DNA of 64,000 nt from Squalus acanthias (Eukaryota). The translations under genes were made by a program, and so were the position numbers. The stretch lies in NCBI GenBank assembly GCA_030390025.1, contig CM059432.1, positions 19,966,001-20,030,000 of the forward strand, in the 5' to 3' direction. Below are positions 1 to 62,872 of the stretch, piece after piece. The notes under the pieces are model-generated. The model was not told the origin of the DNA. It saw only the letters and a list, made by a program, of their open reading frames with translations, and searched no databases. Positions within the stretch are counted from its first letter, which is position 1, and each line of letters starts with the position of its first letter.

Positions 1-502
1 TAAACCTCCATTACGCACCAGTTCATTGATGCTTGTGAAATGTGGAACATGCTGTTGCTTGAAATAGAACCATTCACATCAAAGTTCAAGGCAGTGGTCA
101 GCCTCATAGCCACTGGCAGAGCCATGCCTATCCTGGACCTTGTCTGAAGGACTGCCTCCAGGAGATGCCATATTTCTGCAAATACCTCCCTAGTGAATTG
201 CACAACTCCTAAGGCATGTCTAGGTAGTTATGCCTTGGTCTGTGCACATGGGTGATTTGGTAAAGGCAGGTACAAGACTGCCTCTAAAGCCTCCTCAGAT
301 CCTCATCCATAACCAGCAAAGAGGGAGGTTTACCCAGCAGGAAGCATTCATTCCCTCCACCACCGGTGCAATGTGGTTGCAGTGTGTACGATCTACAAGA
401 TGCAATGCAACAACTCGCCAAGGCTTCTTCGACGGCACCTCCTAAACCCGCAACTTCTACCACCTAGAAGGACAAGGGCACCAGGCGCATGAGAACAACA
501 CT

Positions 503-1208
503 GGGCTGGATTTTGTCTTGGGGTCGGGTTGGGGTCGTGTAATCCGCATTTCGTGTTTCCCCCCCCGACTCCAGATTAATGTGGATGAATGATGCAATTT
601 TCACTTAATTGGGCAATTGAGTTCCAGCATGTGGGAACCCATGAACCAATTAGTGGTTTCAGTCTGTGAGTGGACCTGGATGCAAAATATGGGGGGGGAG
701 GGAGAAGGAGAGAGAGAGAGAGAGAGAGACAGAGACAGAGAGAGAGAGAGAGAATTTTTTTGCATCCAAGTCCTCTCACAGCAAAGGCCAGGCAGTCTCT
801 GAACACATTCAATGCAGCAGCGGCGACTTTCAGACCTAATACTACTACTACCTTCATCACATCTCCGTTGTAATAGTGGACCTGCAGCTGATAGTCAGCT
901 GTCCACTTGTGCTCCCGCCAGGTTTCACTGGAGTGTTTCACACCAGGCGTACTTCACGTCAGAAAAGGGTTAAACTAGCTAAAACGTTTCAAAATGGCAT
1001 TACAGAGCCAATTTAGAGCTTGTTAAGGGCTTTAATGGCCTCTCCCGCCTCTTGGAGGCGGGACGGAGTCTGGAACCCCGCGACTGATTTTGTCAAAATT
1101 GCGTGGAGGCGGGATGGAGTCGGGATGGGGTCGGAAACCCCGACCCCGCAAATTTAACCCCCCACACGCCTCCAAACCCGACTCCATGGGTCATTCAAAA
1201 TCCAGCCC
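503..1208. mobile_element. Non-autonomous DNA transposon (PIF/Harbinger-like MITE)
   Basis: TIR GGGCTGGATTTTG / CAAAATCCAGCCC; 3-bp TSD ACT (500-502, 1209-1211); internal (AG)n at ~709-752. Confidence 0.8.
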
Positions 1209-1264
1209 ACTGTCTCCAAGTTCCCCTCCAAGTCACACACCATCCTGACTTGGAACTATATTGC

Positions 1265-1746
1265 AGGTTCACCAGACTGATTCCTGGGATGGTAGGACTG
1301 TCGTATGAGGAGAGATTGGGTCGACTAGGCCTGTATTCACTAGAGTTTAGAAGAATGAGAGGGGATCTTGAAACGTATAAAATTCTGACAGGGCTAGACA
1401 GACTGATGCAGGGAGGATGTTTCCCCTGGCTGGGGGGTCTAGAACCAGGGGTCACAGGCTCAGGATACGGGGTAGGACATTTAGGACTGAGATGAGGAGA
1501 AATTTCTTCACTCAGAGGGTGGTGAACCTGTGGAATTCTCTACCACGGAAAGCTGTGGAGGCCAAGTCACTGAATATATTTAAGAAGGAGATAGAAAGAT
1601 TTCTAGACACAAAAGGCATCAAGGGGTATGGGGAGAGAGCGGGAATACGGTATTGAGATAGAGGATCAGCCATGATCATATTGAATGGTGGAGCAGGCTC
1701 GAAGGGACGAATGGCCTACTCCTGCTCCTATTTTTCTATGTTTCTA
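1265..1746 (+). mobile_element. CR1 (HER1-like) LINE 3' fragment
   Basis: Encodes RFTRLIPGMVGLSYEERLGRLGLYSLEFRRMRGDL...RVVNLWNSLP...GYGERAG; tail TTTCTATG repeats. Confidence 0.9.
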
Positions 1747-3244
1747 AGTTTCCTTCATCATTGCCGGGTCAAAATCCTAGAACTCCCTCCCTAACAGCGC
1801 TGTGGGACTGCAGCGGTTCAAGGCGGCGGCTCACCACCACCTTCTCAAGGGCAATTAGGGATGGGGAATAGATGCTGGCCAACGCCCACATCCCATTAAT
1901 GAATTTTAAAAAAAGGACGTCCACCTTCAGAATTGTGGCTGTGGCAACATAAAGTACAACTGGCAACAAGCCACAAATGGAAAATAGGGAGTTGAAAATT
2001 AATGGCAACAGTACTCCACAAGTGAACTGAACAACAAATGTTATTAAAAAAATGTAAAGACAATCAATCAACAAGTATTATAGCAAAGAAGATTATGAAG
2101 CTAATAATGAAACTCATCTTTAGATTGCATTATCTAAATAGATGAAGGTGCCTTCACGACAGCACTCGTTTCTTTCAGCAGCCGTCCTTTCAGCTGCCTA
2201 GGCCCTAAGCTCTGGAATTCCCTCCCTAAACCTCTCCACCTACCTCTCCTCCTTTAAGACAGCCTTAAAACCTGCCTCTTTTCATCTGTCCTTCGGGTGC
2301 TCGGTGTCAAATTTTGTTTGCTAACACTCCTGTGAATCTACGCACCTGGTAAAGTGACAAACACCATTTTTGCAATTTGAGAAACAACAGCAAGAGATTA
2401 TTGCCTGCCAGCAGATGGATGTTTTCCAATGAAGTATGAGAGCTTAAAATGCGAGGTGGACCTTTCCTACTCTGAGTATTTAATCAGAGACCCATGCAAA
2501 AATAGAAGTAAATTCAAACACATTTCCAGGAATGCAAACTCTCAAACAGTAGCGATGTTCTAATATGCATCAACACAGGAGGCTGGTGTTGACAAACTTG
2601 TTCATAATGGCCTAACTGCCGACTGGATTTGGGTGACATTCCTCATTCACCAAGTCATCAGTAATTTCGAGGTGTTCAATTCCAAGTTAGGAGTCATAAA
2701 AATGATCTAAGTGAGCTACTATTTTTTTTTGTCCTTTCTTACTTGAAAGCATCATTTTGCATAAGTGCCCTAAGGAGGAAACAGAATAAGAAATGTAATA
2801 TCCAAGCCATCTGATTATCATACTTCATAACACATGAAGAGGTCATCTCCATGTAGTCTTCTCCTTATTTCAGGGCAATGACGTCACAATTAAGGGCAGA
2901 TGGCAGTAAGAAAACAAAATAAGTGTAGTGCCGTCACTGAAACCATCCACAAGCTGTACAGCGATTTACATTGAACTTTTAGCATTTTCTCTTTAATTGT
3001 TCACATGCTGTGTGGTATCAATGGAATATATGACCAAAAGTCATGGAATTTGATCTATATCTGATTTGCGAGACTGATCATTACTTCATTGGCCATCTGC
3101 AGGCCACACTCATTGATTACATATATTATATCCCACATGTCCTTGTTGCACATTCTCTGTACATCCTCTCACCACCAACCCAAATTCATTTTATGGATCC
3201 AATTAAATATAAACATATTCCCCATGACATTCGATGGCACCACA

Positions 3245-3445
3245 CTCGTTTTCAGGATCAAAATGGGCACCTAAATGTCCAATAAGGCAGAGGAGGCAAG
3301 CACGCTCATTACGTGCCGGAAGTGCGCCACCCGCCATATTGGTTATAGCAGAAAAATTAGCGTCCAGGACTGGCGCCTGAAACAGGCATTAGTCACTTTG
3401 CATAAGCAAATAGGGAGCTTAATGCTTGTTTGAGGCCCCCTTTGT
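3245..3445 (+). mobile_element. Dispersed repeat end (MITE-like) upstream of minisatellite 1
   Basis: Homologous to the reverse complement of 53140-53345 (shared acgctcattac..gccggaa.tgcg...cccgccatattgg...ctttgcata...taatgc.tgtttga.gcccc). Confidence 0.7.
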
Positions 3446-3591: not shown

Positions 3592-6500
3592 CTCCCGATC
3601 ACCCACCCTCCCTCTCCCGATCACTGCCTACCCCTCTCCCGATCGCTGCCCCATCCCTCTCCCGATCACTGTCCCATCCCTCTCCCGATCACTGTCCCAT
3701 CCCTCTCCCGATCACTGCCCACCCCTCTCCTGATCGCTGCCCCATCCCTCTCCCGATCACTGTCCCATCCCTCTCCCGATCACTGTCCCATCCCTCTCCC
3801 GATCACTGTCCCATCCCTCTCCCGATCACTGCCCACCCCTCTCCCGATCACTGTCCCATCCCTCTCCCGATCGCTGCCCACCCCTCTCCCGATCGCTGCC
3901 CCATCCCTCTCCCGATCGCTGCCCCATCCCTCTCCCGATAGCTGTCCCATCCCTCTCCCGATCGCTGTCCCATCCCTCTCCCGATCGCTGCCCCATCCCT
4001 CTCCCGATCGCTGTCCCATCCCTCTCCCGATCACTGTCCCATCCCTCTCCCGATCGCTGTCCAATCCCTCTCCCGATCGCTGTCCCATCCCTCTCCCGAT
4101 AGCTGTCCCATCCCTCTCCCGATCACTGTCCCATCCCTCTCACGATAGCTGTCCCATCCCACTCCCGATCACTGTCCCATCCCTCTCCCGATAGCTGTCC
4201 CATCCCACTCCCGATCACTGCCCCATCCCTCTCCCGATAGCTGTCCTATCCCTCTCCTGATCACTGTCCCATCCCTCTCACGATAGCTGTCCCATCCCAC
4301 TCCCGATCACTTTCCCATCCCTCTCCCGATAGCTGTCCCATCCCACTCCCGATCACTGCCCCATCCCTCTCCCGATAGCTGTCCCATCCCTCTCCCGATC
4401 GCTGTCCCATCCCTCTCACGATAGCTGTCCCATCCCACTCCCGATCACTGTCCCATCCCTCTCCCGATAGCTGTCCCATCCCACTCCCGATCACTGCCCC
4501 ATCCCTCTCCCGATAGCTGTCCCATCCCACTCCCGATCGCTGCCCCATCCCTCTCCCGATCGCTGCCACTCCCTCTCCCGATCACTGTCCCATCCCTCTC
4601 CCGATCACTGTCCCATCCCTCTCCCGATCACTGTCCCATCCCTCTCCCGATCGCTGCCCCTCCCTCTCCCGATCACTGCCCCTCCCTCTCCCGATCGCTG
4701 CCCCTCCCTCTCCCGATCGCTGCCCCTCCCTCTCCCGATCGCTGCCCCTCCCTCTCCCGATCGCTACCCCTCCCTCTCCCGATCACCCCCCCTCCAGATC
4801 ACTGCCCCTCCCTCTCCCGATCACTGCCCCTCCCTCTCCCGATCACTGCCCCTCCCTCACCCGATCACTGCCCCTCCCTCTCCCGATCACTGCCCCACCC
4901 GCTCCCGATCACTGCCCCTCCCTCTCCCGATCACTGCCCCTCCCTCTCCCGATCACTGCGCTCCATCTCCCGATCGCTGCCCCTCCCTCTCCCGATCGCT
5001 GCCCCTCCCTCTCCCGATCGCTGCCCCTCCCTCTCCCGATCGCTGCCCCTCCCTCTCCCGATCGCTGCCCCTCCCTCTCCCGATCACTGCCCCTCCCTCT
5101 CCCGATCACTGCCCCTCCCTCTCCCGATCGCTGCTCCCAACCTCTCCCGATCACTACACCCTACTTCTCCCGATCGCTGTCCTCACTCTCTCTCCCTCTC
5201 CTCACTCGCCCTCTCCCAATCCTCACTCTCCCTCTCCCTCTCCTCACTCTCTCTCTCTCCCGATCGCTGTCCTCACTCTCTCTCCCTCTCCCTCTCCTCA
5301 CTCGCCCTCTCCCGATTCTCACTCTCCCTCCCGATCGCTGTCCTCACTCTCTCTCTCCCGATCACTGTCCTCACTCTCTCTCTCCCGATCGCTGTCCTCA
5401 CTCTCTCTCTCCCTCTCCCTCTCCTCACTTGCCCTCTCCCGATTCTCACTCTCCCTCTCTCTCCCGATCGCTGTCCTCACTCTCCCTCTCCCGATCGCTG
5501 TCCTCACTCTCCCTCTCCCGATCGCTGTCCTCACTCACTCTCTCCCGATCGCTGTCCTCACTCACTCTCTCCCGATCGCTGTCCTCACTCACTCTCTCCC
5601 GATCGCTGTCCTCACTCTCTCTCTCCCGATCGCTGTCCTCACTCTCTCTCTCCCTCTCCCTCTCCTCACTCGCCCTCTCCCGATTCTCACTCTCCCTCTC
5701 TCTCCCGATCGCTGTCCTCACTCTCTCTCTCCCGATCGCTGTCCTCACTCACTCTCTCCCGATCGCTGTCCTCACTCACTCTCTCCCGATCGCTGTCCTC
5801 ACTCTCGCTCTTCCGATCGCTGTCCTCACTCTCGCTCTTCCGATCGCTGTCCTCACTCTCTCTCTCCCGATCGCTGTCCTCACTCTCTCTCTCCCTCTCC
5901 TCACTCGCCCTCTCCCGATGCTCACTCTCCCTCTCTCTCCCGATCGCTGTCCTCACTCTCTCTCTCCCGATCGCTGTCCTCACTCACTCTCTCCCGATCG
6001 CTGTCCTCACTCTCGCTCTTCCGATCGCTGTCCTCACTCTCGCTCTTCCGATCGCTGTCCTCACTCTCTCTCTCCCGATCGCTGTCCTCACTCTCTCTCT
6101 CCCGATCGCTGTCCTCACTCTCTCTCTCCCTCTCCCTCTCCTCACTCGCCCTCTCCCGATTCTCACTCTCCCTCTCTCTCCCGATCGCTGTCCTCACTCT
6201 CTCTCTCCCGATCGCTGTCCTCACTCACTCTCTCCCGATCGCTGTCCTCACTCTCTCTCTATCGATCGCTGTCCTCACTCACTCTCTCCCGATCGCTGTC
6301 CTCACTCTCGCTCTTCCGATCGCTGTCCTCACTCTCTCTCTCCCGATCGCTGTCCTCACTCACTCTCTCCCGATCGCTGTCCTCACTCTCTCTCTCCCGA
6401 TCGCTGTCCTCACTCTCTCTCTCCCGATCGCTGTCCTCACTCTCCCTCTCCCGATCGCTGTCCTCACTCTCCCTCTCCCGATCGCTGTCCTCACTCTCGC

Positions 6501-9371: not shown

Positions 9372-9734
9372 ATTATATTAACTTCATCTCTCTGTTATTT
9401 TAGTGGAGAAATAAACTTGCCTATGTTAAAATGCTGGACCAAGGAGTCTGGCATAAACACAATGATAATATCACACAGCCTAATTTCCAGACTTGCATTT
9501 CCACTGAAGTTAAATTAAATCGGGAACAGTAGCATAGTGGTTATGTTACTCGACCAGTAATCCAGAGGCCTGGGCTAATCATTCGGAGACATGAGTTCAA
9601 ATCCCATGGCAGCTGGTTGAGGTTGCATCCTCTGCAATGAAGAAAAAATGTGCCTAAAGGTTGGTGGGGTTCAGGAAGAGGATGTCAGGCCCTACCTCAG
9701 CATAAAGAGTAACATTTTGCATACACATGGGAAT

Positions 9735-10094
9735 GGTGGCGTATTGGTAATGTCACTGGGCTAGTAATCCAGAGGCCTGGACTAATGATCCAGAGACGTG
9801 AGTTCAAATCCCACCACGGCAGCTGGGGAATTTAAATTCAGTTAATTAAATAAATCTGGAATAAAAAGCTAGTATCTACCGGATTGGCGTAAAAACCCAT
9901 CTGGTTCATTAATGTCCTTTAGGGAAGGAAATCTGCCGTCCTTACCCGGTCTGGCCTATATGTGACTCCAGACCCACAGCAATGTGGTTGATTCTTAACT
10001 GTCCTCTGAAATGGCCTAGCAAGCCACTCAACTGCTACAAAGAACAGTGGTTCTCAAGGGCAATTAGGGTTGGGCAATAAATGCTGGCCTTGCC
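9735..10094 (+). mobile_element. tRNA-derived SINE sharing both head/body and 3' tail with the 33566-36970 LINE
   Basis: 9735-10030 matches the reverse complement of 36674-36970; 10050-10094 (ttctcaagggcaattaggg.tgggcaataaatgctggccttgcc) matches the LINE 3' end. A head-only fragment lies at 9527-9617. Confidence 0.85.
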
Positions 10095-10574
10095 CCTAAC
10101 GCGATCAGTATTCACTGATTAGACCAAAATACTGAAAGAAACAGTAGATCAGCAGAAGGAGAAAAATACTGTAATTACAATTTTTAAACAGCCCCAAGGA
10201 TAACCGATTGAGTTAATGATCTTGTCGTTTTAAGTCATTTTTCTGATGAATTTTTGATTTGAACCAGTATTTATTCTTTTATTATTGAGCAACCTCAGTA
10301 AAGATCGAGAACTATCAAGGTTGAAAAGAATAGACAAAATAAAACAAGTAGCATTGTTTAGGTGACATCAAGCTAGTAGATTAGAGGACAGAGTGGGGAA
10401 AAATTTCCTTAGTTTTAAGGTCCTAGGAAAGAGTGAGTTAGAGTATGAGACAATGTGATGATTCTTTATTTTCAATATAGTGAGGAGGCAGAGAGGCTGA
10501 AGATTGTGTAGGATGACAAGTTTGGAGCGAAGAGGATTAAGATAGGAAAGTTCATAGGAGCAATTGGTATGGTA

Positions 10575-24125: not shown

Positions 24126-27100
24126 TAGATGGACTGAAAAGACAATCCTACAACTGGCCTGAAGTCATTGGACAGTGTACTTATGAGGACTTAGGAAGTG
24201 CTAATACAGGAGGAACAATGAGGTCCAGGACAAGAGGGCAAGCACTCCCTCTATGGCTCAATTGGTGTAAGTGCGATGCCCAATCTGAAACTGACCCATG
24301 CAGGACCAAGAAGGTATTAGCTTCCCTGGCCTATAAGTGCTGGAAAATGGGATTAAAATAGACAGGGCTTGATGGCCGGCGTGGACATGATGGGCCGAAG
24401 GGCCTCTTTCTGTGCTGTATAACTCTATGACTCTGTAACGAGTTCACTGATTTTAGCTGGGGTGGTGATACCTGGGTAGGAATTATTCTCAGCCCATGGG
24501 GGAAGAGGAAATTTAGTCAGGTTTCCCACTCCTAATGGCTACCCAATGTTGGAAAATGTGCGGCTGTGATGCCTACATTTTATTTTACATGAACAAAATA
24601 CCCACGCTCACTCTCTGTCGAGGCTCAGACATGAAGAATGGCTACTTGGAGGGGGAAGAAACAGTGCAAAAGCTAAATCATAGAATCATAGAATTTTACA
24701 GCACAGAAGGAGGCCATGCAGCCCATCGCACCTGTGCCGGCTCTTTGAAAGAGCTCTCCAATTTAGTCCCACTCACCTGCTCTTTTCCCATAGCCCTGCA
24801 ATTTTCCCCTTCAAATATTTATCCAATTCCCTTTTGAAAGTTACCATTGAATCTGCTTCCACCGCCCTCTCAGGCAGTGCATTCCAGATCATAATAACAT
24901 AACTTGTTGCCACTTGATAGATGATGACCAAGAAAGAAAAGGGCTTGGAATTTCCTTGGAGCTGCTCCTACTCTGCCGCTGTAGCTTTGCTGGTAGTCTG
25001 GCCTAAATAGGGTCTCCGCCACACATCTGTTGACGTTATGGCAGCAGAGCGGGAGCGGCTCAGTTTCTGGCTACGTTTACTGAAGTTGTTATGATGTATT
25101 TTTTCTGTATGTTTGTTATGTTGTAAAGAGTTTAATGTCTCACCCATCTTTCGAATGAGATGTTAAACCAAGGCCCCATTTGTCCTCTCAGGTGGAGATA
25201 AAGGATCCCATGGCACTTTCTGAAGAACAACAGCGGAGATCCTCCAGTGCACTGTGCAACATTTATCGTTCAACCAACATCCTCAAAACGGAATCATCTG
25301 GCCATTTATCTCATTGCTGACTGTGGGATTTTGCTGTGCACCAACTGGCTGCCTACATTTCCCTATATTACGACAGTGACTACACTTCAAAACTACTTCA
25401 TTGGCTGTGAAATGCGTTGGGACATCCTGAGGTCATGAAAGATACTATATAAATGCAAATTCTTTCTTTAGAAACATAGAAACATAGAAGATAGGAGCAG
25501 GAGTAGGCCATTCGACCCCTCGAGCCTGCTCCGCCATTCGATGAGATCATGGCTGATCATCCAAATTCAGTACCCTGTCCCTGCCTTTTCCCCATATCCC
25601 TTGATCCCTTTAGCCTTAAGGATTTTTTTACTTATGAATCTTGTTTTTAGTACTATGTTGGGCTACTGACAAAAGAAGACAGCAGCAAGAAGGACTTTCA
25701 AAAACTATTTATAGCATTTCCATTGCTTTTTCTCCCACTCTTTTGCTATTGATATCTGCTTGAAAGTGCTCATTTTTAATTCCTAGTTTTGTAAATTCCT
25801 ATCTGGTAGTTTCCTTTTTTTTTGTTCGTTCATGGGATGTGGGCGTCGCTGGCAAGGCCAGCATTTATTGCCCATCTCTAGTTGCCCTTGAGAAGGTGGT
25901 GGTGAGCCGCTGTCTTGAACCCATTGTTAGCTGTTCATTGGTAGGAACGTACACAAGCGAAGCTGTGATTTGTCAGTGTTTCATGAATACAACATTCTAA
26001 CCCAATCAAGTGCAAGTGTGACACAGAAATTTGCATGCAAGAAAACGAGACACAGGGAGTGTGACATCTGAGGTGTGATGCCTGAAAAACCTGGACAAAT
26101 ACTTAAATAAGAACATAAAAACATATGGGGAAAACAGTAGGAAAATGGGATCTGTTTGGGTGAAAAGCAATAAAATGGGTGTGTAAAATGAGGGGGGCTA
26201 AATTCAACACAGGCAAGCATGGCCAAATTGTTTCCTTTTGTACTAAATTTTCAATGCTTTTATGTACGGTGAGTACAGAAGCGTGCCACTGAACGATTTA
26301 CATACACACAAGTACAGCTGAATTTGCTTGTACTGATCGGGCAGATGTAGCACTTGATTTTTAAATGCCAAAACCCCACCGTACTGAATGCTGTAATTTT
26401 CCACCTGCTTGTAGAAATTCGTTTTCCAGGGCTGCCCAAAGCGTCTGCACTGGTAATTGACAGGTGATTTCTCAAGTAATCAACAGGGTTGCATCTAATG
26501 TAGCTGCAAATAAGAAAGTGCTCGAAAGAGGCCCTCTCTCATCTGCTCTGCTATGAATCACCACGGCAAGTGAATCACCGTCAGTTTTACCACTTTGCTG
26601 GAAAGTTTCAAAGTTTCTAGAGATGGAACACTGCCTAATATGACTCAGCCATAGCTTGTTCTTGAAGCTCTCTCAATCAATAATCACCGTGGCAGCTTGG
26701 GGCACAACAAACCAAAATGAGTGATTTTTTAAAAGTTTTATTCCATTTTTTTTTTAAATGTTGTTACAATTTGCAACCTTATTTTGAACATCCTTGAGTA
26801 AAGTCGAATCCATATGGATGAATGGGGCGATTTTATGAATGGGGAATGAAAATATTGCAGGTCACCATCAACAGACAGGAAATGAATGACCACTTAACTT
26901 ATTTCAGTGGCTCGGAAACATTGGCCAGGATACTGAGAGAACTCCTTGCTTTACTCTGAGTAGTACCATGGGATCTTTAATGTTTATTGAAGCACCAGAA
27001 TAAATAATGTTTCATCTGAAGGATAGCACCTCCATCAATGCAGCACTCCCTGAGAATGCTATCAAATCAGCTAAGCTGACACGACTTAGTCAGTCTCTTC

Positions 27101-32669: not shown

Positions 32670-33213
32670 CGGTATCAGTGTGGTGATTTTATTGGACTGG
32701 TAATCCAGAGGTCTAGACTATAATAGTCCAGAGAATGCGAGATCAAATCCCACCAATTCAGTAAAAAAAAATCTGGAAATAAAAAGCTGGCCTCAGTAAA
32801 AGTGACAATGTAGTTGTCGGATTGTCATAGAAATCCAACTGGTTCACTAATGTCCTTTAGGGAAGGAAACCTGCCCACCTTCTCTACCCCAGAGAGCTGT
32901 GGAGGCGGAGTCATTGAATATATTCAAGGCGGAGATTAACAGACATTTGAACTACAAGGGAGTCAAGGGGTATGGGGAGAGAGCGGGGAAGTGGTGTTGA
33001 GGCCAAGATTGGATCAGCCATGATCTTATTGAATGCCCTGTTCCTGTTTCTTATGTTCTTTTGTTCTGTTCTTACCCGGTCTGGCCTGTGTGACTCCAGT
33101 CCCACACTGACGTGGTGACTCTTAACTGCCCTCTGAAGTGGCCCAGCAAGCCACTCAGTTGTATCAAGTTGCTAGGGATGGGCAGTAATGTGCTGGCCCT
33201 ACACATCCTAAGA
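32670..33213 (+). mobile_element. Second copy of the LINE-related tRNA SINE, interrupted by a CR1 3' fragment (32881-33070)
   Basis: Body ggttcactaatgtcctttagggaaggaaacctgcc|...|cttacccggtctggcc...gcaagccactcagttgta joined to tail ctagggatgggcagtaa. Confidence 0.8.
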
Positions 33214-33624
33214 GTTTTATTGACGGCAGCAGTTGGTGAGGTCGACACTATCCTGCCAATAGGAAAATCTCCGCTTCTATCTGTAAGCTTACTGAAAATG
33301 AGCAAATGCTTCCATTGAGAGGGGAAAAAAAAGAGCAAAAATAATGACAGCTGAAAGCAGGTCTGTGTCAAGTGACTTCCTTTATTTGTGGTGCTGGAAA
33401 TGTCAAACAGAATATTGTCATGTCAAGAAGAGAGTTGCTGTTTATTCAAGGAATTAATTTATAAAATACTTGAAAAAGATATGGAAACAAAATGTACTGA
33501 TCCAAGTCAGATGCTTTGAAGAAATACTGGTGTCAGAACACAGGTACATTTACTTGTGGTGCCAATTTTTATTCGTTCATGGGATGAGGGTGTCGCTGGC
33601 AAGGCTAGCATTTATTGCCCATCC

Positions 33625-36581
33625 CTAGTTGCCCTTGAGAAGGTGGTGGTGAGCCAACTTCTTGAACCGCTGCAGTCCGTGTGGTGAAGGTACTCCCACA
33701 GCGCTGTTAGGGAGAGAGTTCCAGGATTTTGACCCAGCGACTATGAAGGAACGGCGATGATGAAGGAACGGCGATTTACTTCTAAGTCAGGATGGTGTGT
33801 GACTTGGAGGGGAATTTCAAGGTGGTGGTGTTCCCATGCGCCTGCTGCCCTTGTCCTTCTAGGTGGAAGAGGTTGCGGGTTTGGGAGGTGCTGCCGAAGA
33901 AGCCTTGGCGAGTTGCTGCAGTGCATCTTGTAGATGGTACACACTGCAGCCAAGGTACGCCGGTGGTGGAGAGAGTGAATGTTTAAGGTGGTGGATGGGG
34001 TGCCAATCAAGTGGGCTGCTTTGTCTTGGATGGTGTCAAGCTTCTTGAGTGTTGTTGTAGCTGCACTCATCCAGGCAAGTGGAGAGTATTCCATCACACT
34101 CCTGACTTGTGCCTTGTAGATGGTGGAAAGGCTTTGGGGAGTCAGGAGGTGAGACACTCGCCGCAGAATATCCAGCCTCTGACATGGTCTTGTTGCCACA
34201 GTATTTATGTGGCTGGTACAGTTAAGATTCTGGTCAATGATGATCCCCAGGATATTGATGGTGGGGGATTCGGCGATGGCAATGCCGTTGAATGTCAAGG
34301 GGCGCTGGTTGGAGACAGTCATTGCCTGGCACTTGTATGGCGCGAATGTTACCTGCCACTTATCAGCCCAAGCCTGAATGTCATCCAGGTCTTGCTGCAT
34401 GCGGGCATGGACTGCTTCACTATCTGAGGAGTTGCGAATGGCACTGAACACTGTGCAGTCATCAGCGATCATCCCCATTTCTGACCTTATGATGGAGGGA
34501 AGGTCATTGATGAAGCAGCTGAAGATGGTTGGGCCTAGGACACTGCCCTGAGGAATTCCTGCAGCGATGTCCTGGGGCTGTGATGATTGACCTCCAACCA
34601 CCACAACCATCTTCCTTTGTGCTAGGTGTGACTCCAGCCAGTGGAGAGTTTTCCCCTGATTCCCACTGACATCAATTTTACTAGGGCTCCTTGATGCCAC
34701 ACTCAGTTAAATGCTGCCTTGATGTCAAGGGCAGTCACTCTCACCTCACCTCTGGAATTCAGCTCTTTTGTCCATTTTTGGAACAAGACTGTAATGAGGT
34801 CTGGAGCCAAGTGGTCCTGGCAGAAACCAAACTGGGCATCGGTGAGCAGCTTATTGGTGAGTAAGTGCTGTTTGATAGCACTGTCGACAACACCTTCCAT
34901 CACTTTGTTGATGATTGAGAGTAGACTGATGGGGCGGTAATTGGCTGGATTGGATTTGTCCTGCTTTTTGTGGACAGGACATACCTGGGCAGTTTTGAAC
35001 ATTGTCGGATAGATGCCAGTGTTATAGCTGCGCTGGAACAGCTTGGCTAGAGGCGCAGCTAGTTCTGGAGCACAAGTCTTCAGCACGACAGCCGGGATGT
35101 TGTCGGGGCCCATAGCCTTTGCTGTATCCAGTGCGCTCAGCCGTTTCTTGATATCACGTGGAGTGAATCGAATTGGCTGAAGACTGGCTTCTGATATGGT
35201 GGGGACCTCAGGAGGAGGCCGATATGGATCATCCACTCTGCATTTCTGGCTGAATATCGTTGCAAGCGCGTCAGCTTTGTCTTTTGCACTCACGTGCTGG
35301 GCTGCACCATCATTGAGGATGGGAATATTCATGGATCCTCCTCCCAGTTAGTTGTTTAATGGTCCACCATCATTCCCAACTGGATGTGGCAGGACTGCAG
35401 AGCTTTGATCTGATCTGTTGATTGTGGGATCACTTAGCCCTGTCTCGCATGCTGCTTCCGCTTTTTAGCATGCATGTTATCCTGTGTTGCAGTTTCCCCA
35501 GGTTGGCACTGCATTTTTAGGTACGCCTGGTGTTGCTCCTGGCATGCTCTTCTACACTCCTTATTGAACCAGGGTTGGTCCCCTGGCTTGATGGCAATGG
35601 TAGAGTGAGGGATATGCCAGGCCATGAGGTTACAGATTGTGGTGGAATACAATTCTGCTGCTGCTGATGGCCCACAGCGCCTCATGGATGCCCAGTTTTG
35701 AGCTGCTAGATCTGTTCTGAATCTGTCTCATTTAGCACGGTGGTCGTGCCACACAACACGATGGAGGGTGCCCTCAGTGTAAAGACGGGACTTAGTCTCC
35801 ACAATGACTGTGCGGTGGTCACTGCTACCAATGCTGTCATGGACAGATGCATCTGCAACAGGTAGATTCGTGAGGACGAGGTCAAGCAGGTTTTTCTCTC
35901 TTGTTGGTTCTCTCACCACCTGTCGCAGGCCCAGTCTGGCAGCTATGTCCTTCAGGACACGGTCAGCTCGGTCAGTAGTGGTGCTACCGAGCCACTCTTG
36001 GTCATGGACATTGAAGTTCCCCACCCAGAGTACATTCTGTGCCCTTGCTACTCTCAGTGCTTCTTCCAAGTGGTGTTCAACATGGAGGAGTACTGATTCA
36101 TCAGCTGAGGGAGGGTGATAGATGGTAATCAGCAGGAGGTTTCCTTGCCCATGCTTGACCTGAAGCCATGAGACTTCATGGAGTCCGGAGTCAAGGTTGA
36201 GGACTCCCAGGGCCACTCCTTCCCGACTGTATACCACTGTGCCACCACCCGTGTTAACACTCACAACTAGGGGGATCAAGGGGTATGGCGAGAAAGCAGG
36301 AATGGGGTACTGAGGTAGCATGTTCAGCCATGAACGCATTGAATGGCGGTGCAGGCTCGAAGGACCGAATGGTCTACTCCTGTACCTATTTTCTATGTTT
36401 CTATGTCTGTCCTGCTGGTGGGACAGGACATACCCAGGGATGGTGATGGAGGAGTTTGGACATTGGCTGAAAGGTATGATTCTGTGAGTATGACTATGTC
36501 AGGCTGTTGTTTGACTAGTCTGTGGGACAGCTCTCCCAATTTTGGCACAAGTCCTCAGATGTTGGTGAGGACTTTGCAGGG
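33625..36581 (-). pseudogene. Disrupted ORF2 (endonuclease + reverse transcriptase) of the LINE above
   Basis: Pieced from ORFs 35728-36339, 35434-35685, 34703-35332 and 33741-34700. Starts near PCKVLTNI*GLVPKLGEL and ends HHHLLKGN-TAG (33625-33627). Contains stops, frameshifts and a CR1 tail insertion. Confidence 0.88.
36254..36405 (+). mobile_element. CR1 (HER1-like) 3' tail inserted into the endonuclease region
   Basis: ggggatcaaggggtatgg...gaatggtctactcctgtacctattttctatgtttctatg interrupts otherwise colinear LINE sequence. Confidence 0.8.
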
Positions 36582-36893
36582 TCAACTGCGTTGGGTGTGC
36601 CGTGGTCGTGTCCATAGCCGGTGCCGAGGTCGATGTCGGGTGGTTCGTCCGGTTTTATTCTTATTGGTTTGTTACAACTGCGTGGCTTGCTAGGCCATTT
36701 CAGAGGGCAGTTAAAAGTCAACCACATTGCTGTGGGTCTGGAGTCACATATAGGCCAGACTGGGTAAGGACAGCAGATTCCCTACCCTAAAAGACATTGG
36801 GTTTTTACGACAATCCGATAGTTTCATGGTCACCATTACTGATGCTAGCTTTTCATTCCAGATTTATTTAATTAACTGAATTTAAATTCCTCA

Positions 36894-36968
36894 GGATTTG
36901 AACTCACGTCTCCGGATCATTAGTCCAAGCCTCTGGATTACTAGTCCAGTAACATAACCACTATGCTA
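36894..36968 (-). promoter_or_regulatory. tRNA-like type-2 Pol III internal promoter (A box 36958-36968, B box 36894-36905)
   Basis: TAGCATAGTGG ... GAGTTCAAATCC fit the A/B-box consensus. The same head occurs in SINE copies at 9527 and 9735. Confidence 0.7.
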
Positions 36969-39900
36969 CTCTTATTACAAAAAGTGGGGAAAACGGCTAC
37001 TGTTTGGGAGGTTCTTACCTCCGTTTTGGCAGTGTCTTCTCAAGGCTTCCACCCAGGCCCTATAATTCTGTTTATTTATGCTGTAGAGTCCCACTGTTGG
37101 AGTTTGGGTGTCTCAGAGCACGATGCCAAGCTCTGTGATGTCAGGTAGTGTACTGTTTAGAACTAGTTCCTTGAGCTGTTCTTTGGTATTCTATCAAAGG
37201 TAATTCCTTTGAAATTAAATGCATTAAATAGTAAAATAAATATAAAAGGTTATTTACGACAATATGCCTCTTTATGATGCCATCATAACTGTTCTGATGT
37301 CACAGAAGCTTCTCTGTAACATCACACAGCAGCCTAACTGCCATCTCTATCTTTTAAGGGGAAGGGAGGTCTGGGCAAATTACTGTGTGTTCAAAGAACC
37401 TCAACTTTGGTCTCAGAAACAAATACACAATTATTGGTATCGAAATACCATTGAATTTCTTGCCTGATGGAGACCTGCCATTTCAAGTCTCCTTCCCTTC
37501 TGGCGAAGTCAGTTATGATTACCACTCTCCTTTGGATTTTTCTGACCAGCTTCTGCACAAAAGTCTCCGAACAGAGATAGCCGCAGAGATCCAGAAGTCA
37601 CTACCTCCAAGCCAACCTTTTCTGTTCATCGACACTTTCTGCTTCCTGGTTTTCAATTCAGCTAGCTGAGCTGTTATTAATTCCAAGGGTTAATCTTTTT
37701 TAATTGCCTCAACGTAAAACTTTATTAAATGTCTTCTAGAAGCACCACTAAATTATATCCACCGGATATTTAAGAAGGAGATAGATAGATTTCTAGATGC
37801 AAAAGGCATCAAGGGGTATGGGGAGAGAGCGGGAATATGCTATTGAGATAGAGGATCAGCCATGATCATATTGAATGGCGGAGCAGGCTCGAGGGGCCGA
37901 ATGGCCTACTCCTGCTCCTATTTTTCTATGTTTCTATTGTCTTCATCTACTTTCTCAAAGACTTCTCATAGATTAGTGAGGCATGACATTGCTTCAAAAT
38001 CCAAGCTGACTAACGTTTACAGCTGGTGTGTTCTTGAACACTGATAAGAGCCTGTAAAATACCTCTGGGCATTTTCCTACCAGGGATAGACTATCTGACT
38101 CTGAGGGAGAATGAAACAAAAAGTTATGCTGATAGGGTTAGATGAAGAGAGGTGGGAGGAGGTTCGTGTGGAGCATAAACACCAACATAGACCAGTTGGG
38201 CTGAACGGCCTGTTTGTGTGTGGTAGACTCTAGGTAATTCTATGTAACAATTCACAGCACAGCACGGAAAGAATCAGCAGAAGCTGAGAAAATAGCCAGA
38301 GAGCAAGAGTAGCAAGATAGGGATGGAAAAAGCAAGCCTGTAAACAGCAAAAAAGAATGAAAATCATCAGCTAGGGAAAAAGCCACAAAGATACTGCGAT
38401 ATCTCTTTTCTTATGAAAGCATTATGGACATGTGGACTAGGTAACCAGAAAAGCCCATGGAAGTGAACAATATAAATGTCTTCACGCGTTTCTGTTTGAG
38501 ACTATGGTGTGAAGGTGGGTAAGCGGGGTTAGACTCTGAAATAAGGTATAGGCTTCTTGAGTTTAACGGTTCTTTTCGGTTTGTAAAAATTCTTATGTTC
38601 CAGGAAGAACAGGCAGAGAAACAAGAAGAAATTGAAGGGCAATAAGCCAGAGAAAACTCATCCAGACTCACACTGTCCCATCCACCCATCACCCTTGTGC
38701 TCGCTAACCTACATTGGCTCCCAGTTTTTAAATTCTCATCCTCGTGTTCAAATCTTTCCATGGCCTTGCCCCTCCCCATCTCTGTAACCTCCTCCAGCCC
38801 TACAACCCTCTGAAAACACTGCGATTCTCCCCCCTCGCCCCACTATTGGTGGCCATGTCTTCACCAGTCTAGGCCCTAAACTCTGGAATTACCTCCCTAA
38901 ACCTCTCCGCCTCTCCACCTCTCTCACCTCCTTTAAGACACTCCTTAAAACTTATCTCGTCAACTGTCCTAACGCTCCTTATTTGACACACTGTAAATAT
39001 TTGCCTGATTACGTTCCCGTGAAGCCCCTTGCGACGTTTTATTACATTCAAGGCACTGTATGAATGCAAGTTGTTTGAAAAGAAAATCAGACCAAAGACA
39101 TACAGGAGGAACAACAAAATAGCATGGCGACTGAGGAAAGAAATAGAAAAAAGAGAATAGTGGCAGAAGGCAGCGAAAGAGTGAGCGATAGGAATTCAAT
39201 CTCAGAAAAAAAAAGTGTGGCAACAACTGAACTGTTTGTGTGCGTTTTCTGCCAATGCCTCCCCCATTCCTCCCTACTGTCCAAAAAGATATTGACTCAT
39301 GGCTGGGTTACAGACTCACAGGCACCAGCAGCCCTCCAGTGCTTGGTCCAAGTGACTATTCTTCATGCGTGAGCCTATATAGTGGACGCTGACAGCATAG
39401 TGGACCGCAAACACCATCAGAGCTGATCCTGATCCTGAGCTTACCTGATGTCTCCACGTACAGGCTTTTCAGCAGGAGTCCAATAAAACCTTGTTAATCC
39501 TCCTCTGTCATGCGACCGAGTTGATGGACACAATGGCAGTGCTTGGTGGGCTTAAAAAAAAGTGCATTGAAACCATTATCAAATGCTGAATGGAAAAGCT
39601 CGGAAAAAGGCTCGGGGTCGCGGACGGGAGTGTTTCCAAGCAAGGAAAACACAGCTGAGAGTGTGTTAGGATGACAGTGTAAGCTGCTAGAGCTTTGCGT
39701 TCGCGGTTTGTGGTGTCATCCTCGTCCCTTGAGTGTTGCCTGCTCCCAGCCATCTGTTCTCCTCTGTTTACCGCCGCACCTCACTGAGCTTTCTGGTGGC
39801 ACCAGAAAGACAGCAGCAACTGAGTGTTTGAATCAAGCTCCGACAAACATTCAGAGCTTCCAGGGTTTCTTTTGTTGTGCATGGAGCCTCCAAAATAACA

Positions 39901-54213: not shown

Positions 54214-54446
54214 CTCCCCTCCAAGTCACACACCATCCTGACTTGGAAATATATCGCCGTTCCTTCCTCGTCACTGGGTCAAAATCCTGGAACTCCCTCC
54301 CTAACAGCACTGTGGGAGTACTTTCACCACACGGACTGCAGCGGTTCAAGAAGGTGGCGCACCACCACCTTCTCGAGGGCAATTAGGGATAGGCAATAAA
54401 TGCTGGCCTTGCCAGCGACACCCACATCCCAGGAACAAATTTAAAA
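54214..54446 (+). mobile_element. Short 3' fragment of the 33566-36970 LINE family
   Basis: QVTHHPDLEIYRRSFLVTGSKSWNSLPN...HHHLLEGN; a similar fragment lies at 25813-25921 (-). Confidence 0.85.
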
Positions 54447-60106: not shown

Positions 60107-61147
60107 TGTGGTGGTTGGAGGTCAATCATCACAGCCCCAGGACATCGCTGCAGGACTTCCTCAGGGCAGTGTCCGAGGCCCTACCATCTTCAGCTGCTTC
60201 ATCAATGATCTTCCCTCCATCATAAGGTCAGAAATGGGGATGTTCGCTGATGATTGCACAGTGTTCAGTGCCATTCGCAACTCCTCAGATAATGAAGCAG
60301 TCTGTGCCCGCATGCAGCAAGACCTGGACGTCATTCAGGTTTGGGCTGATAAGTGGCAGGTAACATTCGCGCCACACAAGTGCCAAGCAATGACTATCTC
60401 CAACAAGCGAGAGTCTAACCACCGCCACTTGACATTCAATGACACTACCATTGCCTAATCCCACACCATCAATATCCTGGAGATCACCATTGACCAGAAA
60501 CTTAACTGGACCAGCCACATAAATACTGTGGCAACAAGAGCAGGTCGGAGGCTGGGTATTCTGCGGCGAGTGTCTCACCTCCTGACTCCCCAAAGCCTTT
60601 CCACCATCTACAAGGCACAAGTAAGGAGTGTGATGGAATACTCTCCACTTGCCTGGATGAGTGCAGCTCGAACAACACTCAAGAAGCTCGACATCATCCA
60701 GGACAAAGCAGCCCGCTTGATTGGCACCCCATCCACCACCTTAAACATTCACTCCCTCCACCACCGGCGTACCGTGACTGCAGTGTGTACCATCTACAAG
60801 ATGCACAGCAGCAACTCACCAAGGCTTCTTCGGCAGCACCTCCCAAACCCGCGACCTCTACCACCTAGAAGGACAAGGGCAGCAGGCGCATGGGAACACC
60901 ACCACCTCCAAGTTCCCCTACAAGTCACACACCATCTTGACTTAGAAGTATATCGCCGATCCTTCATCGTCGCTGGGTCAAAATCCTGGAACTCCCTACC
61001 TAACAGCACAGTGGGAGTACCTTCACCACACGGACTGCAGCGGTTCAAGAAGGTGGCTCACCACCACCTTCTCAAGGGCAACTAGGGATGGGCAATAAAT
61101 GGTGGCACTGCCAGCGACGCACACATCCCAGGAATGAATTTTATAAA
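60107..61147 (+). mobile_element. 5'-truncated copy of the 33566-36970 LINE family (RT C-terminal half)
   Basis: GLPQGSVRGPTIFSCFINDLP...MFADD...HHHLLKGN; one internal stop. Confidence 0.9.
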
Positions 61148-61519: not shown

Positions 61520-62872
61520 GAACATAAGAAATAGGAGCAGGATTAGGCCATTTGACACTTCAAGCCTGCTCCGCCATTCAATATCATGGCTGATCTTCTA
61601 CCTCATCGTCACTTTCCTGCACTATCCCCATATCCATTGATTTCCTTAACATCCAAAAATCTATCGATCTCTGTCTTGAATATACTCAACGACTGAGCCT
61701 CCACAGCCCTCTGGGGTAGAGAATTCCAAAGATTCACCACCCTCTGAGTGAATAAATTTCTCCTCATCTCAGTCCTAAATGGCTGACCCCTTATTCTGAG
61801 ACTGTGACCCCTGGTTCTAGACTCCCCAGCCAGAGGAAACATCCTCCCTGCATCTACCCTGTAGGAATTTTGTATGTTTCAATGAGATCACCTCTCATTC
61901 TTCTAAACTCTGGAGAATATAGGCCTAGTCTACTCAATCTCTCCTCATAGGACAATACCCCATCCCAGGAACCAGTCTGGTGAACCTTCGTTGCACTTCC
62001 TCTATGGCAAGTATATCCTTCCTTAGGTAAGGAGACCAAAACTGTACACAATACTCCAGGTGTGGTCTCACCAGGGCCCTATATAATTGCAGTAAGACAT
62101 CTTTAACCTGATACTCTTGTAATAAAGGCCAACATACCTTTTGCTTTCCTAATTGCTTGTTGTACCTGCATGCTAACCTTCAGTGATTCGTGTAAAAGGG
62201 CACCCAGGTCCCTCTGAACTCCAACATTTCCCAATCTCTCACCGTTTAAAAAATACTCTGCTTTTCTATTTTTTCTACCAAAGTGGATAACTTCACATTT
62301 CTCCACATTATATTCCATTTGCCATGTTCTTGCCCACTCACTTAGCCTGTCTATATCCCCTTGAAGCCTCCTGGCATCCTCCTCACAACTTACATTCCCA
62401 CCTAGAATTGTATCATCAGCAAACTTGGATATATTACATTTGGTCCCCTCATCCAAATCATTGATGTAGATTGTGAATAGCTGAGGCCCAAGCACTGACC
62501 CTTGTGGTACCCCACTTGTTACAGTCTGCCAACCCGAAAATTACCCGTTTAGTCCTACTCTGTTTTCTGTCCCTTAACCAATCGCCAATCCATGCTAGTA
62601 TATTACCCTCAATCCCATGAGCCCTAATTTTGTTTAATAACCTCTTGTGTGGCACCTTATCGAATGCCTTCTGAAAATCCAAATACACCACATCCACTGG
62701 TTCCCCCTTATCTATTCTGGTAGTGACAGCCTCAAAAAACTCTTATTTGTCAAACACGATTTCCCGTTCATAAATCCGTGTTGACTGCCCAATCCTATTA
62801 TTATTTTCTAAGTGCCCTGTTACCACGTCCTTAATAGTAGATTCTAGCATTTTCCCTACTACTGATGTCAGG
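61520..62872 (-). mobile_element. CR1 (HER1-like) LINE, RT region and 3' end
   Basis: DVVYLDFQKAFDKVPH, LGPQLFTIYINDLD, KFADD, LSYEERL, WNSLP; several frameshifts. A deleted relative lies at ~63530-63810. Confidence 0.92.

Follow-up and report, generated by a model that had tools for sequence, protein, structure and literature searches.

In a 64,000-nucleotide (nt) stretch of Squalus acanthias DNA (GenBank assembly GCA_030390025.1, contig CM059432.1, positions 19,966,001 to 20,030,000; hereafter the window), the minus strand carries at 36969-33566 a dead member of a large retrotransposon family that joins the front of a short interspersed nuclear element (SINE) to the coding part of a long interspersed nuclear element (LINE). 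This is a heritable, multicopy LINE family whose 5′ terminus consists of a SINE head and body and which has one open reading frame (ORF), encoding an apurinic endonuclease (APE) and a reverse transcriptase (RT), and no ORF1. The element is a ~3.3-kb, high-copy, autonomous retrotransposon without long terminal repeats, whose transcript started with the first base of a tRNA-like head. Its parts follow one another as a head with A and B boxes, a strongly conserved body of ~230 nt, a linker of ~100 nt, an APE-RT frame of ~970 codons and a hairpin tail of ~60 nt. This structural and evolutionary account, taken without any polymerase, is held with high confidence; the whole account, in which RNA polymerase III (Pol III) would transcribe the element from its SINE head, is given slightly less than even weight and is drawn from the sequence. 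The window copy is organized as follows.

36885..36969, minus strand: tRNA-like head, the 5′ terminus of the element (the DNA 5′ of the head is unrelated in 25 head-bearing copies)
36958..36968, minus strand: A box, TAGCATAGTGG, fitting TRGCNNAGTGG
36894..36905, minus strand: B box, GAGTTCAAATCC ((G)AGTTCAAATCC), fitting RGTTCRANNCC
36669..36884, minus strand: SINE body of ~215 nt, ending ...CAGTTGTAACAAA and common to the short partner SINE (from alignment with the short SINE at 9730-10110)
36575..36668, minus strand: linker of ~95 nt, found in the coding form only, A-rich (AAT/AAG-like) and then CpG-rich
35728..36574, minus strand: APE domain, broken in the window copy (Pfam Exo_endo_phos_2, E=5.6e-12)
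36254..36404, minus strand: foreign-repeat fragment (~151 nt) inside the APE domain, present in the window copy only and not part of the family (other copies skip 36405-36253)
33628..35727, minus strand: rest of the ORF, comprising the stretch between APE and RT, the RT and a C-terminal region, here in at least three frame pieces
33566..33641, minus strand: 3′ tail common to the short SINE, with the last ~5 codons, the stop, a 59-nt 3′ untranslated region (UTR) bearing a hairpin, AATAAA and a short run of A

The two box patterns are the A-box and B-box consensus sequences. The long frame opens in the linker, just past the TAA of GTTGTAACAAACC, where the SINE body ends; in the window copy it closes at a TAG (33627-33625) shortly before the 3′ end, ...GAATAAAAA at 33566. 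The RT of this copy matches Pfam RVT_1 in two pieces (34703-35347 and 33741-34706; E=1.3e-7 and 6.5e-15). The copy is dead, its reading frame being split into at least four pieces; missing from it are the first ~7 nt of the family (GGGAAYG), 12 nt on the 3′ side of the head and 15 nt within the linker, and it has no space for an ORF1. An earlier note on this DNA had placed an A box at 36958-36968 and a B box at 36894-36905 of the minus strand, and both are confirmed at those positions. The SINE body of ~220 bp and the linker of ~90 nt that it described ahead of an APE-RT ORF agree with the ~215 and ~95 nt found here and with the Pfam domains, and the absence of ORF1 and of any other 5′ UTR is borne out both in the window copy and in the 29 copies sampled through the APE region (see below).

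The junction between SINE and LINE is shared by thousands of copies. When the 3.71-Gb assembly was searched with the junction (36560-36760), 4,068 first-look candidates were obtained, and each of the 40 scored matches crosses the junction, with identities of 86-91% and on many contigs. A 24-mer crossing from body to linker has 4,818 genome matches at two mismatches or fewer, against none for the reversed-pattern control. The upstream flanks are unrelated among the 25 head-bearing copies, most of which begin GGGAAYG-GTAGC. Moreover, the first ~20 nt of the linker are found neither in the short SINE nor in copies that begin at the junction; because this stretch is in neither parent, repeated independent fusion would not recreate the junction. 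A one-off event at this locus, with a SINE inserted beside a truncated LINE or recombined with it, would agree with the presence of only one head-bearing copy in the window, and the earlier note had allowed for it; with the junction present at 4,818 places, spanned by every scored match and set in independent flanks, this explanation is now vanishingly improbable. The LINE family inferred in the same note is supported by the same many independent copies.

The 5′ ends of other copies tell the same story. Among 19 junction-selected loci other than the window, 12 begin at the head and seven are truncated within the head or body. A second sample of 29 copies was picked by a query internal to the APE region, which avoids selection for the junction. 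Thirteen of them start at consensus nt 1-13 of the tRNA-like head; the remaining 16 start at nt 140, 212, 276, 317, 328, 346, 348, 405, 444, 451, 481, 551, 562, 574, 596 and 615. No alternative shared 5′ region, other 5′ UTR or ORF1 was found in these 29 copies; longer copies with an ordinary UTR and ORF1, the outcome that the earlier note had named as contrary to its reading, were looked for and none was seen among them. Twenty copies were fetched at full length, of which ten are collinear from head to tail (~3.26 kb), five extend to the tail but have lost or gained sequence internally, and in five the tail was not reached within the fetched stretch. The copies thus form a graded series of 5′ truncations with one common 3′ end, as LINEs do, and contig depth climbs toward the 3′ end of the element. 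A single ORF that encodes both an APE-type endonuclease and a reverse transcriptase likewise places the long form among the LINEs.

A site-specific LINE that inserts at one position within SINE copies, so that the two SINE halves merely flank it, would also explain why the short SINE corresponds to the two ends of the long form. It has almost no probability. In the 12 copies truncated 3′ of the junction, the 250 nt upstream contain no SINE sequence, and the truncation points are spread continuously and evenly across head, body, linker and APE region. In addition, the last codons of the ORF and its TAG stop lie inside the tail that is shared with the SINE, and the type of head matches the type of linker, as described next.

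A majority sequence of 3,310 nt, to which the 15 underlying copies are 93.7-97.2% identical, contains one APE-RT frame of 972 codons, opening at nt 329, which supplies the intact consensus ORF2 that had been proposed as a check on whether the family is real. Two subfamilies are distinguished: in subfamily A (six copies) a head with ..GCATAGTGGTTATGTTACTGGAC.. is paired with a linker with ..AATAAAAC..CACGAC.., and in subfamily B (nine copies) a head with ..GCGTAGTGGTAATGTCACTGGGC.. is paired with a linker with ..AATGAAAC..CACGGC... Fourteen of the 15 full-length copies show this match between head and linker. Between the majority ORFs of A and B there are 23 synonymous and 19 nonsynonymous differences, which gives a ratio of nonsynonymous to synonymous rates (dN/dS) of 0.25 (P=1.5e-5), and neither majority ORF contains a stop. 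Since this ratio is measured between subfamilies that are themselves linked to the head, it was the head-bearing lineage itself that coded for protein and experienced purifying selection. The lineage was autonomous insofar as selection maintained its own ORF, and head and coding part are inherited as one unit, the ORF being selected while that unit split into two subfamilies.

Several observations count against this account. The longest frame among the 15 copies is 778 amino acids, so that every one is damaged, and of 58 scored protein matches not one is both stop-free and open for more than 874 amino acids; the active form is therefore beyond direct observation in this genome sample. One copy (L052) is mixed, with a B-like head and an A-type linker, and the subfamily majority sequences derive from few copies. 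The family is apparently old and now inactive. The lack of an intact copy would also be expected if the long form were a passenger, that is, a SINE with a dead LINE interior copied in trans by a head-less autonomous LINE with the same tail. Such a head-less form could be represented by four of the 29 APE-selected copies, whose starts fall at the junction or a little ahead of it (nt 317-348) and whose upstream DNA is unrelated. These junction-start copies are few, however; their starts are at an A-rich stretch, and two copies keep part of the chimera-specific linker, as 5′ truncations would; the 29 copies share no other 5′ region, and the dN/dS of 0.25 between head-linked subfamilies with open frames on both sides is not what a dead interior would leave. 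We therefore regard a passenger as improbable and retain the reading of a lineage that encoded its own APE-RT protein.

The differences between A and B are unevenly spread along the element: 5 in 100 nt of the head, 1 in 233 nt of the SINE body, 5 in 103 nt of the linker, 40 in 2,808 nt of the ORF and 1 in 62 nt of the tail, the counts for head and linker being inflated because the subfamilies were defined on those segments. The single difference in the 233 nt of the SINE body is fewer than synonymous sites predict (dS 0.034; P=0.003). Regarding the affinities of the protein, RT and APE fall into protein-atlas clusters of eukaryotic APE+RT proteins, mostly from chordates, and the LINE group of the element appears to be CR1-like. 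CR1-Zenon is defined by the absence of ORF1 and by a poly-A tail (PMC13343379); the present family has no ORF1, and its 3′ ends consist of AATAAA and roughly 5 to 12 A, which is short for a poly-A tail.

The short partner SINE, which may be HE1-like, corresponds to the long element minus an interior of ~2.84 kb. Short copies in the window share the head and the body as far as ...CAGTTGTA and then continue with the last ~75 nt of the LINE. Contigs of four runs, labelled as organisms A, B, D and G, cover the whole element, and all of them show the short joint, from ~521 to 3361 on the copy L061, skipping ~2.84 kb; no head-to-linker bridge was found among the contigs listed from those four runs. 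An 18-mer across the short-form junction has 2,459 genome matches at one mismatch or none, against three for the control. Exact gapped patterns that combine a head type with a junction type gave the following numbers of matches.

Head A: LINE junction 204, short-SINE junction 152
Head B: LINE junction 336, short-SINE junction 9

The A head is thus common to both forms and the B head is almost confined to the coding one. One short copy in the window, at 9730-10110 (plus strand), has a B head; it was considered as a second SINE family and rejected, as it has a joint of its own that keeps the LINE-type AACAAA and has only two genome matches. It resembles a long-form element that sporadically lost its interior and not a member of the main SINE. 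A partial head is found at 9525-9604. By the usual definition of a SINE as short, non-coding and LINE-dependent, the long form is not one, with its 3.3 kb and a selected ORF of 972 codons, and the short form is, as exemplified by the copy at 32672-33200 (plus strand), the body of which is interrupted by ~190 nt of foreign sequence. In run X18 (organism G), one contig covers the unique 3′ flank of L061 (L061 3467-3937) with 26 differences in ~470 nt; the source of this run may therefore be a related species or a diverged haplotype rather than the individual that was assembled.

The head of the long form has the other mark of a SINE, an origin in a small RNA with A and B boxes. In the window copy it is not called as a tRNA by ARAGORN or by Rfam (E<=10). 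One of ten better-preserved copies gave an Rfam tRNA match, below threshold (24.6 bits, with the cut-off at 29), in an alignment in which a 30-nt insert separates the D arm from the T arm, and the majority head is read as tRNA-Thr(agt) by ARAGORN at a relaxed threshold only. The insert is explained by two similar anticodon-arm-like hairpins (CTGGRCTAGTAATCCAG and CTGGACTAATGATCCAG) that stand in tandem in the head, at consensus nt ~27-66 (~36943-36905 of the window, minus strand). From the failed calls together with the match in the D and T arms it follows that the head is tRNA-like in its promoter-bearing arms, as SINE heads usually are, and is not a tRNA gene. In both subfamily majority sequences the A box lies at nt 8, the single difference between A and B within it falling at an N position, and the B box lies at nt 72 and is identical.

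The entry into the long frame is less easily accounted for. There is no in-frame ATG before codon 286, and the nearest ATGs are out of frame or stopped: ATG302 is in frame and is followed by a TAG two codons later, and ATG354, present in subfamily B only, is one base off the frame, except in two copies with an extra T. A start at the ATG of the SINE body (~nt 273) was rejected, since it is in frame in eight of 33 copies and stop-free in one of 33; a seeming in-frame start in one subfamily sequence was due to the length of the linker. As the selected frame has no nearby in-frame ATG, frame entry must be unconventional; AUG-independent translation of ORF2 has reportedly been described for L1. 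Linker indels come in multiples of three in 21 of 33 copies, a pattern that was set aside as coding evidence because the AAT/AAG-like linker could slip in threes. The CpG-rich stretch of the linker reads in the long frame as a basic run rich in Arg, Thr and His. At the other end of the element, the hairpin of the 3′ tail has a folding z score of -2.86 (copy L061), and target-site duplications were not evident by eye in 16 copies.

Which polymerase transcribed the element is the part of the account on which the evidence is divided. The use of Pol III is plausible, at a level of belief just under half, and the case for it is made by sequence features. The type-2 promoter boxes are canonical in both subfamilies (nt 8 and nt 72), which fits Pol III, and the 5′ end is fixed at GGGAAYG, identical to that of the short SINEs in the window. 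Type-2 promoters initiate at the first base of the element, and for the head to be kept over generations, initiation at its first base is needed. The 3,310-nt sense strand of the majority sequence contains no run of four or more T, compared with 15 runs of four or more A; this lack of an internal terminator permits Pol III and does not show it. Runs of three or more T in the ORF number five, against 11.2 in synonymous-codon shuffles (P=0.006), and the depletion is found on the sense strand only, runs of three or more A being as frequent as expected (34 vs 35.9). The AATAAA tails are compatible with polyadenylated Pol III transcripts of the kind described for SINEs (PMC8466645). The conservation of the SINE body beyond that of synonymous sites fits Pol III too.

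The following considerations pull the other way. The absence of T runs of four or more is equalled by 21% of dinucleotide and 12% of synonymous-codon shuffles and is not significant, and the test on runs of three or more was post hoc, chosen after that result, with an uncorrected P. None of the five head differences between the subfamilies falls at a specified box position, an outcome that chance alone would give in ~37% of cases. The linker (consensus nt 334-436) has 11 CpG in 103 nt, with an observed/expected ratio of 1.25 vs 0.31-0.44 elsewhere in the element, and such a CpG-rich linker together with an AATAAA tail would suit a transcript of RNA polymerase II (Pol II) too. We know of no natural protein-coding Pol III transcript of 3 kb; such a transcript would be uncapped and hence poorly exported and translated, and the frame lacks an early in-frame ATG.

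The same heritable chimeric LINE may thus have been transcribed by Pol II, with the SINE-derived 5′ region, the CpG-rich linker or both acting as an internal promoter from which transcription starts at, or very close to, the first base. The RNA would then be capped and polyadenylated at the AATAAA tail, and the A and B boxes would be leftovers or would serve the short SINE only. A selected ORF of ~970 codons has to be translated, for which a capped mRNA serves best, and the CpG content of the linker, the AATAAA with its A run at the 3′ end and the non-significant T-run result are all in keeping with this possibility. Internal promoters that start at base 1 are moreover the rule in LINEs, according to Kojima 2018 (PMC5786205). 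Under Pol II, however, a new start would have to match the 5′ end of the short SINE by chance, both boxes would not be expected to remain canonical in both subfamilies, nor T runs of three or more to be depleted on the sense strand only, and, with no in-frame AUG near the start, ordinary cap-scanning is not obviously served either. Transcription by Pol II is a serious possibility that we place clearly below even.

The element most likely originated when the RT switched template from a 5′-truncated LINE RNA onto a SINE RNA, an event that would have occurred once and then bred true. Capture of the 5′ part of a SINE by a LINE is favoured because SINEs with a tRNA head and a V-domain have different LINE partners across vertebrates (table in PMC3747384). 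If Pol III is taken as the polymerase, the type-2 promoter of the head would recruit it, with the start at the first base, and in this way the promoter would be carried into each new copy. The RNA would pass through the body, which is free of T runs, and would end in the flanking DNA or at the AATAAA tail. The APE-RT protein would be made from a start without a nearby AUG, and it would bind its own RNA at the 3′ hairpin and would serve the short SINE too. SINE and LINE may then be two length forms of one Pol III element, the short SINE being the same transcription unit without the coding interior and the conserved body serving the life cycle of the long form; this reading is given somewhat less than even probability.

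The rest of the window holds further traces of the same LINE. Six 5′-truncated or fragmentary copies lie within the 64 kb, at 60107-61139 (plus strand), 23372-22726 (minus), 54215-54440 (plus), 25921-25819 (minus), 1750-1904 (plus) and 342-501 (plus), all toward the 3′ end of the LINE and with 75-91% identity to the copy studied here. The repeat fragment inserted in the APE domain (~135-150 nt) has at least four further copies in the window, recurring at 37942-37805, 25474-25608, 1749-1615 and 61521-61641, and it is also present in the flanks of several fetched loci.

Textbooks and specialist papers treat LINEs, which are coding, transcribed by Pol II and provided with their own 5′ UTR, as separate from SINEs, which are non-coding and have a Pol III head and a borrowed tail, the two sharing the tail only. 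Thousands of coding LINE copies with an inherited SINE head and body blur this divide. If Pol III does drive the element, it would be the first protein-coding Pol III retrotransposon, and how an uncapped RNA of 3 kb is exported and translated would become a direct question. Even under Pol II, a LINE can swap its whole 5′ region for that of a SINE and thrive, which provides a concrete route for the exchange of modules between SINEs and LINEs. It also offers a possible explanation of the puzzling conservation of SINE bodies, the body being constrained more than synonymous sites inside an autonomous element. For annotation, this means that counts of SINEs and of LINEs will both be wrong where a repeat library lists the element as two separate entries, one SINE and one LINE.

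Full-text literature searches, whose coverage did not extend to the original HE1/HER1 papers, found no description of a LINE with a tRNA-derived 5′ end, and to the extent of these searches the structure is undescribed. The lack of ORF1 adds little to its novelty. According to a 2026 survey (PMC13343379), ORF1-less forms are common in the CR1 group, universally in Rex1 and Zenon and also in chondrichthyan L2, so that the loss of ORF1 is by itself ordinary in this LINE group and the premise of the earlier note that it is unusual is weakened. The ORF1-less elements of that survey resemble the window family in having a single APE-RT ORF of ~3 kb and no ORF1, and they include Zenon in sharks and rays, with an A tail; elasmobranch Zenon elements have, by the same account, never been formally annotated. 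In the main text of the survey the words tRNA, Pol III and promoter do not occur.

A closely similar pair is the HE1 SINE, of the V-SINE superfamily, and the HER1 LINE of sharks and rays, in which, as here, a tRNA-derived SINE with a strongly conserved central body and a CR1-like LINE share a 3′ tail (listed in a table of Ohshima 2013, PMC3747384). In that secondary description, as far as its available text goes, only the tail is shared, whereas here the LINE also has the SINE head and body as its own 5′ end. The bipartite non-autonomous LINEs of Kojima 2018 (PMC5786205) and Persaeus, derived from CR1-Zenon (PMC6740152), are short elements composed of the 5′ and 3′ ends of a LINE, as is the short form here, and template switching has been proposed as the source of such mosaics. 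Those short forms lack a Pol III head, as is stated for Persaeus, and their LINEs have ordinary 5′ UTRs, whereas the 5′ part shared here is a tRNA-like head and body. The Persaeus paper (PMC6740152) separates internally deleted LINE derivatives from SINEs by the missing Pol III head, and the short element described here is both at once. Kojima 2018 reports only the 5′ parts of RTE and Vingi in SINE bodies, holds that SINEs cannot encode protein, and notes that Pol II and Pol III signals may conflict (PMC5786205).

Chimeric retrocopies of the U6/L1 type, which arise by template switching and place sequence of a Pol III-type small RNA 5′ of a LINE, probably mirror the origin of this element. They are, as far as is known, single events, dead on arrival, each with its own junction; here, in contrast, one junction is present in at least 4,818 copies and has bred true through two subfamilies. 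Finally, some LINEs insert into RNA genes and borrow the host promoter there; R2 in the 28S rDNA, for example, is an autonomous LINE that relies on a promoter not of the usual LINE Pol II type, as is proposed for the present element (PMC3414825). The promoter borrowed by R2 stays in the target, whereas the promoter-like head described here belongs to the mobile unit.

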